From Octopus vulgaris (lineage: Eukaryota), in NCBI GenBank assembly GCA_951406725.2, contig OX597831.1, forward strand, positions 34,534,001 to 34,598,000: a stretch of 64,000 nt of DNA, in the 5' to 3' direction. How positions within the stretch are numbered: position 1 is the first letter of the stretch; every line of letters begins with the position of its first letter. Made by a program: the position numbers and the translations under genes. The notes under the pieces are model-generated. The model was not told the DNA's origin. It worked only from the letters and a program-made list of their open reading frames with translations, and ran no database searches. Positions 1,720 through 52,490 of this stretch are shown piece after piece.

Positions 1720-2309
1720 TTAATAAAACTAACTGGGGACATAGATCCTGTAAAAACCTGGTGTCAGTAGGAAAACGCATTTAAACAAAAGGGATTTTTG
1801 GAAAGTAGTGAAACAGTTGGAAACTGTTGTTCCATGTAATCGCTGAATATCCAAAAAATAGCAACGAATCTCCCTCAAATTACAAATGGAAGGACAGTTT
1901 GATTTATGCATTTCAACGTAAAGATTTCTACGTAAAGATCCTCTCCTAGTCATACAGACTCATAGAGACGGTTTCCCGGCATATATTCTCCATCTCCCGG
2001 GCGTGACACTGGTCCATCGAGGAATTACTCACTTTTGCCATCTGATTGAAACAACGTGAAATGAAATGATTTACTCAAGAGCAGAACGAATTATCCGGTC
2101 AAGGAATCGAAACCTCAATCTTACGGTCATGCACCTCCACGCACTGACACCCAGAATGTCTTTGGAACAGGACTGCTCGGTCAGTGCTTACTTGGGCTTA
2201 ACAACAAAAGCCGACTAGTGAGTATTGAATATTCACAAAGATAGTAACAGCAGTCGGGCCACCGATATTAGTAGTCGTGGAGTGGAACGCAAACCACTGG
2301 TTGGTAACC

Positions 2310-2543
2310 TATTTCTTTACTACCCACAAAGGGCTAAACACAGAGAGGACAAACAAGGACAGACAAACGGATTAAGTCGATTATATCGACTCCAGTGCGT
2401 AACTGGTACTTAATTTATCGACACCGAAAGGATGAAAGGCAAAGTCGACCTCGGCGGAATTTGAACTCAGAACGTAACGGCAGACGAAATACGGCTACGC
2501 ATTTCGCCCGACGTGCTAACGTTTCTGTCAGCTCGCCGCCTTA
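2310..2543 (-). mobile_element. tRNA-derived SINE with Meta-like domain (family B), monomer with TSD
   Basis: Reverse complement reads ggcggcgagctg..gttagcacg..gagttcaaattcc..gtcgactttgcctttcatcctttcgg.gtcgataaa..gtaccag. It is flanked by a 12-bp direct repeat tggttggtaacc (2298-2309) / tggttgataacc (2546-2557). Confidence 0.85.
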
Positions 2544-2987
2544 ATTGGTTGATAACCATCGACACGGAGGCTTTCTTGTTGCTTCCCGAATAAATCAACT
2601 ATGACATCTTGAACTGCTACAGACTCACAAATTCAGGAGTCAAAAGTATTTGCTAAGCTCATATTCCTTTTTTTTTTTTGCCGAACCCAGAAGAAGGAAC
2701 AGTAAGTACGACTTCGGTGTGATTTGATCTGACCATGTAAAGAACGCATAACTAAACGCTGCAAAACAGCAGGGACAGAAAGAAGTCACTATATGGTCAC
2801 TTGACTTGCCAGAAATAGCAAGCAGATTTCCTTTAAATCATGCTTTACCGTCTTAAAAATTGAGATATTCATGATAAGCCTAGATAATATAGTATTATTT
2901 TGAAGTTTACTATGGGATATTCCTAAAGGTTTTTTCTATCACTGCTTTTCATAAATTAAATATATTCATTTATAAAATATAGACATT

Positions 2988-3307
2988 CTGGCATTCCGTC
3001 GGTTACGACGACGAGGGTTCCAGTTGATCCGATCAACAGAACAGCCTTCCCGTGAAATTAACGTGCAAGTGGCTTAGCACTCCCCAGACATGTGTACCCT
3101 TAACGTAGTTCTCAGGGAGGTTCAGCGAGATACAGAGTGTGACAGGGCTGGCGCTTTGAAATATAGGTATAACTCATTTTTGCCAACTGAGAGAACTGGA
3201 GCAAAGTGAAAAGTAAAGTGTCTTGCTCAAGGACACAACGCGTTGCCGGGAATTGAACTCACAACCTTATGATCGTGAGCCGAATACACTAACCACTAGG
3301 CCACGCG
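2988..3307 (-). mobile_element. tRNA(Arg)-derived CORE-type SINE, second tail type
   Basis: Same head and CORE as 1075-1400 but a different tail (...ggaaccctcgtcgtcgtaaccgacggaatgcc). A sister copy lies at 31193-31505 (+). Confidence 0.75.
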
Positions 3308-4186
3308 AAAGGATGAAATGTGAAGTCGACCTCGGTGGTATTTGAACTCAAAACGTAAAGACTAACGAAATAATCCAAACCACTTTTTCCAGCGTGCTTA
3401 ATAATTCAGTCAGTTCGCCTCCTTGGTTTACCCAAAGATACTGGCTTGATTTAGTTACAGCTGTCATCTATATACAATCTTAACATTTACTGCAAAAGAA
3501 CGAACGACAATATGAGTTACTTTCAACAATTCTTGTAGTTTCGTAGCGAGTGGTTGCCATACATTTATTGCCACCGAAAACCTGCGTAACGAACTCTTGT
3601 TACTAAGTGTAACCTTCTATTGCTACACTTATAAAAATCAGACCGATTCGTATATCTAATATATTTTCCGCTGTGAGATTCGATGCATAAACTACTGATG
3701 TGCTAGCAATGCTTATTTTTCAAGCTAAAGTCCACTGTGGGGGTATTTTAGCCATCACTGCATTCGTAAATTAAATAAATCCACGTCTGTCATATTTAAC
3801 GCTCTCATCTTGGATAGCACAAAAGGAACCGAGTCGACTATTCGTTTCAATTATTCTTGTAGATTTATCAGCGACTAGCTAGTTCGCTTTGCTATGCTAC
3901 ACTGAGTAAACATTTACGGAATTGATTTGCTTCTGGCACGTCTGAAAATGACAAATGCAGAGACACTCAGAAAAACTTGCAACACATAAATCTACGTGAA
4001 TGTGGTTTGTCAAATGTGACTCTCGAAATGTCCAGCATATATTGCGTAGCTACTATGCTTCGTACAATTGACGCATTCAAATGCATAGAAATAAATAACA
4101 TATGATGGATAATATAATAGAAGTAATGTAACATAAGGTAGAGAATAAAAAAACAATACATTATATATTTGCTTAATCACTCGTTG

Positions 4187-4257
4187 AGCAGAATAATGCA
4201 ATGGAAGCTGCTGGACTCATAAACCAGAGATCTATAGATGGAAACTACTCTTTGCGA
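4187..4257 (+). pseudogene. Decayed initiator tRNA-Met copy
   Basis: agcagaataatgcaatggaagc-tgctggactcataaaccagagatctatagatggaaactactctttgcga aligns end to end with metazoan tRNAi-Met (AGCAGAGTGGCGCAGCGGAAGCGTGCTGGGCCCATAACCCAGAGGTCGATGGATCGAAACCATCCTCTGCTA). The CAT anticodon is kept but the stems and A/B boxes are damaged. Confidence 0.7.
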
Positions 4258-4574
4258 AGAAAATAGATACTAATTTTGATACTTATATATCGCAACTGAG
4301 TTGTCAGCAAATATGCCAACGTAATATCTTCAGAGGGGGAAAAATATACCCTGCTATAATGAATCCAAAAACACATCCAAAGGTATATATTTTCCCTTCT
4401 GATGATATTATGCTCATATCATATAAATGTAACTTTAGCGTTTACTTAATATTTACTGAGTATTAATTGAAACAGCTGTAAGTGAAGATGATTAATTTGC
4501 TGCTAATAATAAACAATTATTAACTTTTCAATCCCCATTTTCTTTTTCTTCTTTCATATGCCTATCTATCTATC

Positions 4575-5326: not shown

Positions 5327-5329
<3 letters not shown>

Positions 5330-5513
5330 GGTTGGCTAAAAGTCACTCGACAGTAAATAAAAATTCTACAAATATTTAATATTCAATTTTATTTATTCAT
5401 TTAGGAAAATGTGTCACTCAAAGACTCAATTTGAACAATTTTCATGATGTTTCATATTTAGATGCTTTTATAAAATTTTTGATTTATTGTCAGGTGACTT
5501 TTGGCCAACCCTG
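5327..5513. mobile_element. Tc1/mariner-type MITE
   Basis: ~26-bp TIRs cagggttggctaaaagtcactcgaca / tgtcaggtgacttttggccaaccctg, TA on both sides, inserted in a (TA)n array. Confidence 0.8.
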
Positions 5514-5521
5514 TACATATA

Positions 5522-8639: not shown

Positions 8640-9470
8640 CCGATTAATGAACGGTGACAGGTCTACTAGTCCCTGAGCAAAAAGATTATGTGTAAGGGAG
8701 GTAAGTAGATCCAGATTTGGTGCAATTAGGGTAGATATAGATCTGTAATGTGAATGATGTATGGGATGTGTGGGGGTTAATGGTATTAATTGAAAGGTTA
8801 GTAGTGTTCTGTCGTATGTTATGTGTTCATATTAAGTTAGGGTATATATTTATTGATGAAAGTTACCTCTTTATTCAATCATTGTCGTACTAAGGTGTTT
8901 TGTGAACATTGATAGAAAGACGAAATTAGGAAATTAGGCTTATGATTCCTAGCACACTTGATTCTGTTGTTAATGGATATAGTCTTGCGCTGGTTAATAC
9001 TTTTTTCAGTGACTTAGGTTGCATCTTGCTTTTGATAATTTTGCATGAGCTTAAAATTTTGTTCATTGTTTTATCTCCTGTGAGGATGTGAAGATTTTGG
9101 GCGATAATGTTGAAGGCTTCGTTGTTTCTAGGGTTATGTGTGGAGATGTACGGGAGTATTTTTAAGTCTGATTTAGTATTACAGTTGGTTTCCCTTAATG
9201 TTCGTATATCTATTTCCATAGCTCGTTTAATGCCATCATATATTAATGATATTGGGTAATGTCTTTTGAGTAGTATTGATCTAAGTTCAAGAAGTCTTCG
9301 TTCCCGAGTATAGGTGTCCGAAACTATGGTACATATTCTTTTCGCTAGATTACAAGGTATATTAATTTTTACGTGCTTGGGGTGGCATGAGTTGAATAAT
9401 AGGTATTGTTTAGAATCCGTGGGTTTATAAAAGATACCTTTTTCGATGTGGTTATTGACTATGTTAATTT
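8640..9470 (-). mobile_element. Penelope-like retroelement fragment (RT thumb/linker plus 3' region)
   Basis: Minus strand reads ..IFYKPTDSKQYLLFNSCHPKHVKINIPCNLAKRICTIVSD..LLKRHYP..LPYISTHNPRN..IIKSKMQPKSLKKVLTSARL, characteristic of the PLE RT C-terminal region. The GIY-YIG domain is absent. Confidence 0.85.
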
Positions 9471-9480
9471 ATATATGCTG

Positions 9481-9942
<462 letters not shown>

Positions 9943-10149
9943 GTGAAATAGAAAGATGAATAATCTTGTAGTAGATTAATCAAAAGTTTAACCGATACCT
10001 TAGTAGCAAAAATCACAGCAGTAAAACAGCACGGCTGGAGGTACAACCATATGGTGTTGCAACCGTGCGTTGGTGCGGATAATTGAAATTAGAACATTAT
10101 TGGTGAATTGAAGAAATGGAGCTGAACGCAGATTGAACAGAAATCGTTT

Positions 10150-10243
10150 TATTTCATTCTACACGTGTTTCGAAAGGCACAAATTACCAAAATCCGATGG
10201 AATAATGGGACCATATTGTGTCTTTCTCTTCAGGAAGAAAATA
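10150..10243 (-). ncRNA. Type I hammerhead ribozyme motif (left arm)
   Basis: Mirror of 10390-10482: CUGAAGA, stem II gaaagacacaa/uugugccuuuc, GAAAC-ACGU-GUA, stem I. Confidence 0.7.
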
Positions 10244-10389
10244 AAATCCGTTGGAAAAACAAAAACAGAACAGAGGCGGAGCAAAAACAAATCGAACTAT
10301 GCTCCTAAGAGCCCATGGGCTCTTAGGAGCATAGTTCGATTTGTTTTTGCTCCGCTTCTGTTCTGTTTTTGTTTTTCCAACGGATTTCC

Positions 10390-10482
10390 TATTTTCTTCC
10401 TGAAGAGAAAGACACAATATGGTCCCATTATTCCATCGGATTTTGGTAATTTGTGCCTTCGAAACACGTGTAGAATGAAATA
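10390..10482 (+). ncRNA. Type I hammerhead ribozyme motif (right arm)
   Basis: Stem I tattttcttc/gaatgaaata, core CTGAAGA 10400-10406, stem II gaaagacacaa..ttgtgccttc, GAAAC 10461-10465, palindromic ACGT loop, GUA triplet 10470-10472. Confidence 0.7.
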
Positions 10483-10537
10483 AAACGATTTCTGTTCAAT
10501 CTGCGTTCAGCTCCATTTCTTCAATTCACCAATAATG

Positions 10538-10582
<45 letters not shown>

Positions 10583-11007
10583 TAATCAATATAGGGTGGC
10601 AAAAAATTTCGTAGAATTTATTTGCCACCAGCGGCCTAGTGGGAAAAAATTAAATAGTCATAGACCATTTATAAGTTCAACATCACAATCAAGGAATGGC
10701 CATAATAGGCCATTCACCCACTAGAAATAACACCCAAAGCTTCAACCGCAAAATAACATTAATTCCGCAAACCAGGAGAAAATTAAAAAAACATTTTACC
10801 CTGTAATTTCTTATACGATGCACCGTTTCATCTATTGTTTAATGGTAAACTAACCTGATTAAATTAAATCAAGCCAATCTTCCATAGGCCGATAGATTCG
10901 TCAGTAAGAAACAGCCAGATCCGAGCAGATATTATCACGAGGCACCTCTATCCCTGCCTCGGCAATATCTGACCTAAAATTTTCAAATCATCGCACTCGC
11001 ATATATA

Positions 11008-11262
11008 TATTTTAAAAATATAAGTTTATGAAAGAATGGAGTTGAACGACTTGTTAACAAATTTCCTTTATTTTCGACATATGTTTCGAAGGCTGCATAT
11101 TCCTAATTCCGAAGGAATAAGGAGTACATTATGCAGATTTATGTACTCCTTATTCCTTCGGAATTAGGAATATGCAGCCTTCGAAACATATTTCGAAAAT
11201 AAAGGAAATTTGTTAACAAGTCGTTCAACTCCATTCTTTCATAAACTTATATTTTTAAAATA
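11008..11262. repeat. 122-bp-arm palindrome with 11-nt loop in a (TA)n-flanked element (~10580-11416)
   Basis: Arms 11008-11129 and 11141-11262 with one mismatch. They carry a half hammerhead (ccttcGAAAC-ATAT-GTC) and share atggag.tgaacg with the 10093 palindrome. Confidence 0.95.
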
Positions 11263-11430
11263 AACATACAAATTTCCGCACGAAAGCACGTAGTCTATGC
11301 CCTAGGGACGTAACTTCAACCGTGCTAGCCAGATAACGGAAGAGATGGTGTTGTGGATTTCCACTTCGGCATCTGAAACTCAGAGTTTTATCTTGACTAT
11401 CGAATAATGTAACATATTATTTGTATAGAT

Positions 11431-15666: not shown

Positions 15667-16400
15667 CTTTTACTCACTAATGGGTTACAGCCAGAGCTGG
15701 GGCCATTTAGATATACATAAACCCGGAAAAGAAGCACACTATAATGTGTAGAGCAGTTAATATTATAGTGGGGTAGGCCGGTTTATGGGGTTAGCCTGGG
15801 TTTCTCGCCCATAAGAGGTTTAGCATTACGGCGTATCTTCAGATCCTAAACACTGCTGGCCTGAGACCTCTTTAAAATATGGAGAGGGGAAAGCCTCGTT
15901 TTTAAAGATAAAACCCTAGGTGATTATCTCCCTTTACCATTGTCCATCGATCTTCGGCCAGCTGTCATCTTGCGGTTACTAAAGCACAACGAAGGTAAAT
16001 GATTGTCTCCCTTCGGCCTTGGCTATTGGCTTTCGGCTGTGGTGCCGCCCTGCTGATTCCAAAATGCCAGCAGGAATATTCTAAAATGCAGGCATGGTCC
16101 GAAAATCTCCGTCCTGCAGTTCAGGATTCTACCTGGAACGAGTGAGTCTTTAAGAATCCTCGTGCGTTCAGCAATGCATAACTTGCACCGTTTCGTTCCG
16201 TTAATGTAGGGGCCTGGGTTCTCGGGTATTTTCCATGCGATTGAGTATGGAATCTCTTCGTCTCGTAATTGCCAGATATGGCTGGCCAGTGATGTCACGT
16301 ATCTCCTTTCCGGGACTCTGAAGGAGGACAGATTATTGGAAATACGCTGTTTGAGAAAGTTACCCGCGTGATGTCGTTGCGCCTGTTGCTAGTGTTGGTG
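15660..16400 (-). mobile_element. Penelope-like element 3' fragment (GIY-YIG tail, 3' UTR, decayed hammerhead)
   Basis: TSLASHIWQLRDEEIPYSIAWKI..PYINGTKRCKLCIAERTRIL..ILNCRTEIFGPCLH matches the PLE endonuclease C-terminus. Downstream on the same strand, 15788-15846 reads CTGAAGA..cgcc/ggcg..GAAAC. Confidence 0.75.
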
Positions 16401-36647: not shown

Positions 36648-37169
36648 CTACTTACTTGTACTTGTACTTGTGGCGACATTCACCCTGGGCGGGTTGAGTC
36701 GGCTTCTTCTACCATCCTCGAGGCATCTCGAACCATGGCAGCCCACGCACGATGGTCGTGCGCCAGTTCACTAGAGATAGCGAGCCAGTCACGGTTCCAC
36801 TGGCGCAGGCCGACCACCTGCGGTCCCGTGAGCACAGAGAGGTCCTCCTTGATCGTCGTAACCCAGGTCTTCAGCTGCCCGCCCGCGCGTTTCCGCCAGT
36901 TGGGAAGTGGAGTTGGGAGAAGGACATCACGGCTCAGTTCACCCACCGGACGCCTACATGCATGGCCAAACCACCGCAAGCGCCGTTGCAGAAGGACAGA
37001 TGGAAGGGGCCGCAGAGACAAGCGAAGTCGGAGATTGGCGGTGGGAACTCGATACACCCGACGGCGGCGAAGAATGCACCGGAGGCAGTCATTGTCGAAG
37101 ACTTCCAGCCTTCGTTGATCGACCATCCGCATAGGCCACGTTTCACAGCCATAGAGAAGTACTGTACGA
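36648..37169 (-). mobile_element. RTE-clade LINE, 5'-truncated 3' end
   Basis: Open frame RTVLLYGCETWP..LEVFDNDCLRCIL..RRLRWFGH..RR..GGQLKTW..DHRAW, stop at 36680, then a (ACAAGT)n/(AAGT)n tail. GC-rich relative to the host. Confidence 0.9.
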
Positions 37170-37511
37170 CAAAAATTCCACGGCTTCTAAGTCTACATTT
37201 GAAATCATTACAACGCAAGAAGCCGTCGAGAATGCATTAAAGCCTTGTATAAGAATACAATAGAAAGCTGGTTAGAGTTTCTTCTTTTTCTTTCTCTTCT
37301 TTTCTCTTTGTTTCCTCTATTTTTCATTATTTATTTTATTCATGTAAACCTTTCTCCTTGCCTATCAGCCTATTATTTTTGTTATAACAATTATTCATAA
37401 TAAGAAATAGCTATTTTAGTTATATTGACATTTCTGCTTTAAAGATCGATTTTTAAATTGCCTCCCAGCTATTTTCGCTGGCATCCAAACTCCATACATT
37501 TCCCTTGTCGC

Positions 37512-43678: not shown

Positions 43679-44969
43679 CGAGGGACGTTCAATAAGTAAT
43701 GCCTCTGACCCACTTGCAGTTGTTTGATCTAGCTGAAATGTTGCATGTGTAATCATTTATATATCTATAGAGTAAGTGGCAAATTACAGCTCTAAATTAA
43801 TTGTGGTTTCTGATTTACAGGTGTTTGAACCGAGTCAAGTGTGAAATGGAGCCTGTTGAGTGTCGAGCAGTGATCCGGTTTTTGTATTTGAAAGGACGCA
43901 CACCACGGGAGACTTTTGATGAAATGAAAGTAACTTATGGTGATGATGCCCCATCATATGACCTTGTAAAACGCTGGCATCGTGAATTCAAACATGGTCG
44001 GAACTCTGTGGAAACAGCTCCCAGATCTGGTCGCCCCCTTCTGCCATTGATGAGGCATCTGTCCGTCAAGTTGAGGCTGCCATTTTGGAAGATCAACGCA
44101 TAACTATTCGCCAAATAGCCCATGAGGTCAAGATTAGTACCGGGTCTGTGGAAACTATCATTCATGACCATTTGCATATGCAAAAGGTGTCTACCAGATG
44201 GATTCCCAGGCTGCTCACGCCTTTCCAGAAGCAAGAACGCGTCGAGTGCTCGAGGGTGAATTTGGAGATGTGCCAAGAAGATGGGTCAAAATCTTTCAAA
44301 AGACTGATTACACAGGATGAAACCTGGGTCCATCACGATGATTCAGAGACCAAAGCCCAGTCAATGCAGTGGAAGCACCGTGACTCACCCCCTCCAAGTA
44401 AGGCAAGGATGCAGCCCTCCGCTGGCAAGGTCATGCTCACAGTCTTCTGGGACCAGGACGGAGTAGTGATGACAGATTTCCTGGCAAAGGGTACCACAAT
44501 TGCAGGAGCCTATTATGCTTCACTTTTGAGGAAATTAAGAGAAGTTATCAAAATCAAGAGGCGGGGCAAGATCAGCAAAGGCATCCTCCTCCTGCAGGAC
44601 AACGCTCCGGTCCACAACTCGCTTGTCGCCAGATCAGAAGCACAGGCGTATGGCTATGAACTCCTCCCCTATCCCCCTACTTTCCTGACCTTGCACCCTC
44701 TGATTTTCACCTCTTCCCAGTGATGAAGTTGTTTTTGAAAGGAAAGCGTTTCCCAGATGATGCAGCCTTGATTTCTGAAGTCGCGTTCCGGTTGGAGGAC
44801 CAAGCTGGGGTCTTCTACAAAAACGGTCTCCAGAGCTGCATCAAACAATGGGAGAAATGCGTAACTCTGGGTGGTTCCTATGTAGAAAGAGACTAATAAC
44901 TGTGCCAAGTTTCGTTGCTCTACTGCTATGGGAAGTGGGTCAGGGGCATTACTTATTGAACGCCCCTCG
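43679..44969 (+). mobile_element. Full-length mariner (DD34D) transposon, 1291 bp
   Basis: TIRs cgagggacgttcaataagtaatgcctctgacccact / agtgggtcaggggcattacttattgaacgcccctcg, with TA TSD at 43677-78 and 44970-71. Confidence 0.97.
43846..44896 (+). pseudogene. Mariner transposase with two frameshifts
   Basis: MEPVECRAVIRFL..PRSGRP / WIPRLL..TQDETW..LQDNAPVH / YFPDLAPSDFHLF..YVERD*. Frameshifts fall in C-runs near 44035 and 44675. Confidence 0.93.
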
Positions 44970-46139: not shown

Positions 46140-46843
46140 ATTTTAGAAATATGATATTTCTAAATCTTTCAGAGAGATTTATACAGTAGCAGTACGATAA
46201 AGTGATGGTATGCTGCCAACTTAATGTGGCCGTCCTATGAATAGGAAGAATGCTACTGCTATTTAGCCCAAGGAAACACCGTTTCCAGTTGGCCATGGCA
46301 CATTTTCTGTGTCCTTATGTTTTCAAAGGGGAGATAAGCACCTCCACCCAGCATAGCCAGCACTCGGGGTCTAGTTTCAGAGTCATTGCTCATCGTCAGT
46401 CTGGAGTAGCATGGCTTGCTAGCTGTCGATGCTTATTCGCCTCTGAAACCATAGATTTCAAGTGAAATACATTCACTGATTTCACATTAAGTTGGCAACT
46501 TTATAGTGATGCTACTGTACTCTCTGAGAGATTTAGAAATGTAATATTTCTATTTTAGAAATCAGTGAATGTATTTCACTTGAAATGTATGTTTTCAGAG
46601 GCGAATAAGCATCGACAGCTAGCAAGCCATGCTACTCCAGACTGACGATGAGCAATGACTCTGAAACTAGACCCCGAGTGCTGGCTTTGCTGGGTGGAGG
46701 TGCTTATCTCCCCTTTGAAAACATAAGGACACAGAAAATGTTTCATGGCCAACTGGAAACGGTGATTCCTAAGGCAAATAGCAGTAGCATTCTTCCCTTT
46801 CATGGGATTGCCACATTAAGTTGGCAATATGCCATCACTTTAT
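46140..46843. repeat. Inverted repeat (arms 46197-46483 and 46558-46843) whose spacer is an inverted copy of 46140-46229
   Basis: Arms are clearly alignable with scattered substitutions and contain CTGACGA-tgag/ctct-GAAAC (46642-46667). Confidence 0.9.
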
Positions 46844-52267: not shown

Positions 52268-52490
52268 ATTGTATAAAGGATCGTGGGTAAGGCCAGAACA
52301 ATGCGAAGTAAATGCAAGGTAAATCACAAGAAAACAAATACGTGAATTAATGTAGACTTATCTTGTATTCAATAACCCCGAAATACTGAATATAAGGTAA
52401 GTCTGCATTAATTTACATGTTTGTTTTCTGGTGATTTATCTTACATTTATTCAGCATTGTTTTGGCCTTACCCACGATCTTTTATACAAT
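52268..52490. repeat. Diverged inverted repeat, ~104-bp arms, 15-nt loop
   Basis: Arms 52268-52371 and 52387-52490. Mismatches are mostly transitions. Confidence 0.9.

Follow-up and report, generated by a model that had tools for sequence, protein, structure and literature searches.

The near-perfect palindrome at 10093-10539 of the window (the whole 64,000-nucleotide stretch of Octopus vulgaris DNA analysed here) reads, with a probability that we put at about 0.8, as one head-to-head insertion, truncated at its 5' end, of a young Penelope-like element (PLE) of Hydra type, likely formed when each of the two ends of a cut (TA)n target served as a primer. Its arms are reverse complements of each other apart from one substitution, one 2-nt indel and one 1-nt indel, and they meet without a spacer at the self-complementary hexamer CCATGG (10313-10318); the exact zero-spacer arm measures 40 nt, against at most 10 nt in 200 shuffles, and both the palindrome and its zero-spacer centre had been described correctly in the first-pass annotation. 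The left arm (10093-10318, minus strand; element positions ~3243-3469), which carries the family-typical hammerhead, and the right arm (10313-10539, plus strand) are both 5'-truncated pLTRs, and they share the CCATGG microhomology 7 nt downstream of a putative capped RNA start. The left arm runs on for ~155 bp past 10093, to 9938, and the right arm has no counterpart of this one-sided tail (9938-10092, minus strand; element ~3470-3624), so that the whole insertion is the asymmetric segment 9938-10539, with a ‘long’ end at the tail and a ‘short’ end at the right arm. The (TA)n arrays between which the palindrome had been placed do flank the insertion, as target tracts without assigned strand at 9786-9939 and 10539-10579, but because of the tail the left tract adjoins 9938, not 10093. 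No host exon was recognised among the window ORFs of ≥130 aa, and an intronic position is still compatible with this.

Judged by sequence, the palindrome represents the 3' end of a PLE of 3,624 bp that occurs as a tandem array with a single 895-aa ORF, which is intact in two natural copies. From motifs and alignment, this ORF contains YRDD and, at its C-terminus, a GIY-YIG-type domain; a Pfam scan of it gave no match and a PDB sequence search nothing significant, and a homologue search returned 418 proteins, one of them from Argonauta at 41%. The family has the features of EN+ PLEs, namely a single RT/GIY-YIG ORF, tandem copies forming pLTRs, and 5'-truncated inverted insertions with a one-sided tail, and the tracing of the arms to it supports the Penelope-like pLTR origin that had been proposed for them. 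With one arm as the query, 1,103 candidates were found in the species' own 2.8-Gb genome (best 99% identity), and a 22-mer from the hammerhead half has 2,199 exact occurrences genome-wide; the suggested youth of the element is borne out, and the recommended check for other palindromic copies and a link to PLE ORFs has turned up other inverted copies and a parent family with a PLE ORF. The stub at the palindrome contains neither the ORF nor any sequence upstream of the start site, and is therefore probably inert.

By its motifs, we file the parent element in the Hydra clade, which is described as having a single ORF with an RT plus a GIY-YIG domain at the C-terminus, DKT, RWK, CxxC and CxH motifs around E and N, a CxCX5C linker, (TA)n targets, a hammerhead near the 3' end and generally a length of <3 kb (Craig et al. 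2021, PMC8557442). The ORF contains SDKT and CNLC..E..N..CPH, that is, CxxC and CxH around the E and the N, and the family has both the (TA)n flanks and the hammerhead. It departs from the description (PMC8557442) in its length of 3.6 kb (unit 3,624 bp), in reading RWL at the RWK position (its relatives read RWK or RWR), in its long stem II, in its tail of ~155 bp compared with 30-40 bp, and in the loss of CxCX5C from all copies seen, one Cys being left in young and older copies alike whereas the linker is intact in 7/7 aligned relatives. A family ORF at 1885-4572 (minus strand) of locus L032 lacks the linker, carries low-complexity inserts and still targets (TA)n, and this retention of targeting after linker loss counts against the suggested link between the linker and TA targeting. 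No named Hydra reference appeared among the 120 listed of the 418 homologues. Hydra-1_Obim differs in its length (2,507 bp) and its hammerhead (PMC8557442), and the parent element is therefore another family. The Naiad clade was ruled out, as Naiads have an N-terminal endonuclease and no canonical hammerheads.

Inversion is the normal insertion product of the 3,624-bp family. The first 100 listed hammerhead matches fell into 68 clusters with 24 outward pairs and no inward ones, in a sample that covers one chromosome stretch and was ascertained on the exact 22-mer. From around these clusters, 68 loci were fetched, with the array omitted and one cluster split in two; a direct inversion is present at no fewer than 47 of them (a lower bound, since a gap threshold was applied), and in 44 of these 47 one arm ends at ~3450-3480 and the other at 3610 or beyond, a short and a long end together. 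The inner ends vary, with 13/125 arms clustering at 3220-3240, and the arms overlap by at least 2 nt at 32/47 joins. The short-end arm reaches further 5' in 26 of the 44 inversions and the long arm in 11, with 7 symmetric within 10 nt; in 11/44 the long arm ends at 3455 or beyond, and there the arms do not overlap. The longer short-end arms and the non-overlapping arms imply that, in general, neither arm was copied from the other. Both arms of a locus come from one subfamily, with diagnostic mismatches of 10/361 within loci vs 3,795/9,709 between loci.

The inner ends also carry a signature that we read, from sequence, as a capped RNA start at element position 3236. Genome-wide, the base before A3236 is a non-element base in 130 copies and the element's own C in 876, and among the 100 matches listed of the 130, 63 have G at this position. 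When 30 junctions at 3236 were inspected, 28 were truncated exactly there, including 21/21 of those with G. A control position 9 nt downstream gave 21 cases with 2 G, compared with the 63 of 100 at 3236 (Fisher p=6e-6). Nine of the 21 inspected Gs can come neither from the partner arm nor from the TA target, seven could reflect microhomology with the partner arm, and five are ambiguous. A second family, described below, repeats this pattern at an identical distance from the CCATGG that it carries itself (9 G in 20 cases, p=0.04; 18-19 truncated by eye). Arm ends piled up 7 nt upstream of the palindrome's junction, with an extra G, are as expected from a capped RNA start, and for L1, too, the additional G found at the 5' junctions of full-length copies has been attributed to the cap (PMC11702581).

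We propose that a tandem copy would be transcribed from this start, which lies within the pLTR and precedes the hammerhead core by 94 nt, and that the GIY-YIG domain would nick both strands of the (TA)n target. The two cut ends would prime at different element positions, one at ~3469 and one at ~3624, with the stretch in between becoming the tail; both cDNAs would extend toward the RNA 5' end, many of them reaching the cap, and their 3' ends would be joined through microhomology. In the palindrome copy, both cDNAs would have been trimmed by ~7 nt to CCATGG, whose self-pairing would leave no spacer. The established elements of this scheme are the parent with its ORF, the TA targets, the fixed short and long outer ends, the variable inner joins and the microhomology at the joins; target duplications are unreadable in (TA)n. 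Two primings at two fixed RNA sites fit the arm geometry, as was found in vitro for PAc, in which two RT start sites bound the tail and both strands are nicked (PMC11167929). Where the arms overlap, the scheme calls for either two RNAs from a single source or strand displacement on the one RNA. We lean, by a small degree, towards the wider reading that the junctions are a record of the transposition intermediate, with a capped start defined to one base, twin priming on sense RNA at two fixed, obligatory sites close to its 5' end in place of antisense self-priming, the full capped RNA and not the hammerhead-cut RNA as the main template, a CCATGG hairpin at the start site in two diverged families, and TA targeting without the zinc-finger linker of the Hydra clade.

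The perfect centre of the palindrome could also be explained by snap-back, in which the element is of Penelope origin but the mirror arises when the cDNA primes itself at CCATGG and endonuclease cutting fixes the short end; self-priming, in which one cDNA or an antisense template folds back, has been proposed for such insertions (PMC3846280). The symmetric joins (7/44) and the consistent origin of both arms from one subfamily agree with it, and snap-back of the long cDNA is possible for the symmetric joins, the palindrome type included. Yet it cannot yield the 26/44 inversions with longer short-end arms or the 11 in which the arms do not overlap, nor would a G at the sense start result from an antisense template, and pairs are known in which both arms begin at the start site (adjacent matches on opposite strands), so we consider it improbable as the account of the palindrome, at roughly one chance in eight. 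The first-pass annotation had inferred a non-autonomous fold-back element, which would be mobilised as a whole palindromic unit. In its favour, the junction 24-mer of the palindrome occurs at six loci that have the exact zero-spacer junction and the outer ends in common. However, these are six loci vs 2,199 copies, none of them has the private changes of the 10093-10539 copy, and they span different subfamilies, one locus being of an older subfamily in both of its arms. Three of the six carry extra pieces at the junction and one is decayed. The same outer ends are found with dozens of other junctions, and the second family forms a zero-spacer join of its own at its CCATGG (locus L175). The six loci thus do not descend as copies from one palindromic master, and the short and long ends with many junctions and no shared mutations indicate that the mirror is rebuilt at every insertion; mobilisation as a unit is very unlikely and we have dropped this part of the earlier interpretation.

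It is hardly credible, in turn, that the palindrome is an artefact of assembly or of fold-back reads. Among the public contig pieces listed, which come from four large runs, none covers the stretch from end to end, but this is uninformative, as only contigs of a high-copy repeat are concerned. Against an artefact stand the 4 nt by which the arms differ, the presence of a tail on one side only and the unrelated flanks; moreover, the rule of one short and one long end holds at 44 loci, and contigs from two studies contain, at 10313, further inversion joins that belong to the family. In four runs that we guessed to be RNA, contigs with a family arm run into the normal element and none crosses the palindrome junction, which is silent on both expression and artefact.

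With twin priming, the two hammerheads would be passengers of the pLTR. Three hammerhead-like motifs came out of a structure-aware scan that covered all of the window, one in each arm and one adjoining, so that the outward-pointing pair of type I motifs on opposite strands that had been noticed is indeed present. The left-arm motif occupies 10150-10243 (minus strand; CUGAAGA core starting at 10233, with a predicted cut after 10160, GUA) and the right-arm motif 10390-10482 (plus strand; core from 10400), whose predicted cut after 10472 agrees with the cleavage site named earlier. By sequence, both have the type I core (CUGANGA/GAAA/NUH) and stems I-III. Stem I has 3 bp, a mismatch and 6 bp, and stem III has 2 bp with an 8-nt palindrome (ACACGUGU), the dimer type, as the proposal of a palindromic stem III had held. 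The 10-11-bp stem II that had been claimed fits the left arm (5 bp, a mismatch and 5 bp) but not the right arm, where one base has been lost and only 3 bp remain in register beside the core, and since the stem II region is 54-55 nt long, neither hammerhead is minimal. A search of Rfam returned no hammerhead at E≤1; what it did match were generic miRNA-type hairpins, below gathering scores. In an isolated arm the hammerhead is not the minimum-energy structure (z 0.50 and 0.27), a comparison for which the constrained hammerhead energies are rough builds, used solely to show that the hammerhead fold is not the minimum.

The folding energies (-388 kcal/mol for the hairpin vs -39.5 for one arm) predict that the hairpin dominates any read-through transcript, which makes cleavage from the palindrome locus in such RNA unlikely. 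The competition between hairpin and cleavage, and the role of the palindrome as an ADAR/Dicer substrate, both raised in the first-pass annotation, are plausible on this modelling. Truncations at the predicted cut site (element position 3404) numbered 19 vs 10 at the control, which falls short of significance (p=0.07) and is at most a weak sign of hammerhead cleavage in vivo, far below the start-site signal; a search with a second pattern permitting TA microhomology gave 9 truncations among 20. Subfamily variation affects 0/13 sites in the core and 12/140 in the flanks, in loci that had all been picked for matching the core's 3' half exactly.

EN+ Penelope elements are known to form inverted pLTRs that have a palindrome at the junction and a tail (Arkhipova et al. 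2013, PMC3846280; PMC8557442), opposite-strand pairs of min-HHRs 100-700 bp apart are known in PLEs (Cervera and de la Pena 2014, PMC4209133), and the Hydra-clade element Penelope-13_HM is listed with a 5'-truncated inverted copy and hammerheads on both strands (PMC8557442). The present insertion shares with these the head-to-head pLTRs, the one-sided tail, the junction palindrome and the opposite-strand hammerheads (PMC3846280, PMC4209133). Taken as an object, the palindrome is everyday debris of a retroelement, of a kind already published, and its value lies in the family, with its junction evidence on mechanism: the origin of inverted pLTRs and tails is called unresolved in PMC8557442 and PMC3846280, and where PMC3846280 favours self-priming on an antisense template, our junction counts favour two primings on capped sense RNA. 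The internal initiation described for PAc Poseidon (Frangieh et al. 2024, PMC11167929) agrees in that both target strands are nicked and extended, two RT start sites bound the tail, and hammerhead cleavage is unneeded; metazoan PLE hammerheads are reported to cleave poorly in vitro, and as dimers only (PMC4209133). L1 twin priming (PMC11702581) likewise gives inversion joins with microhomology and a cap-derived G, but in L1 the second priming site is variable and the arms barely overlap, whereas in our family both sites are fixed and near the RNA 5' end and the arms overlap into palindromes. Non-LTR retrozymes (bioRxiv 10.64898/2026.07.22.740005) are also non-coding, Penelope-related and equipped with type I hammerheads, but they are head-to-tail tandems, whereas the palindrome is an inverted stub of a coding element whose tandem unit is the coding 3.6-kb element itself. 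Active Penelope-like families have been counted in Octopus vulgaris, in a study whose pertinent passages mention neither hammerheads nor Hydra (PMC13282606). In the literature covered, with most subscription papers and Repbase lying outside it, we found no description of the 3,624-bp family, of PLE twin priming or of a PLE cap G.

A young family with intact ORFs gives predictions at the level of single bases, namely the start site, the two priming sites and a minor role for the hammerhead. Since complete outward hammerhead pairs occur in about a third of the sampled clusters, many loci would yield long dsRNA on read-through transcription, and this may supply substrates for editing or for small RNAs.

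At 8929-11400 of the window, three young hammerhead-bearing insertions lie side by side in TA tracts, next to what we take, by motif, to be an older Penelope-like ORF fragment (8929-9468, minus strand). Beyond the palindrome, a copy of a ~484-bp non-coding repeat at 10580-11000 carries a type I hammerhead on the minus strand (core 10904, predicted cut after 10814); the repeat (1,808 candidates, 99% identity) occurs in head-to-tail arrays and inverted arrangements, looks like a young non-LTR retrozyme family and agrees with the retrozyme description better than the palindrome does. The third insertion (11002-11268, with a tail to about 11400) is an inverted copy of the second Hydra-type family (1,468 candidates), in which both arms are cut inside the hammerhead and no full core is left. 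This family has an ORF fragment in L175 that is 43% identical, shares the start-site/CCATGG hairpin motif, and keeps the hammerhead core, pairing and palindromic stem III with changed sequence. An old related endonuclease-region fragment (33% identity) lies at 16062-16355 (minus strand). In further inverted repeats, at 46197-46843 (88%), at 52268-52490 (83%) and at about 5327-5515, the last a MITE-like element that lies between TA tracts and has terminal repeats, the structure-aware scan found no complete hammerhead. Two further ORF fragments resemble, by motif, a mariner transposase (43986-44720, plus strand) and an RTE-type LINE protein (36683-37186, minus strand).
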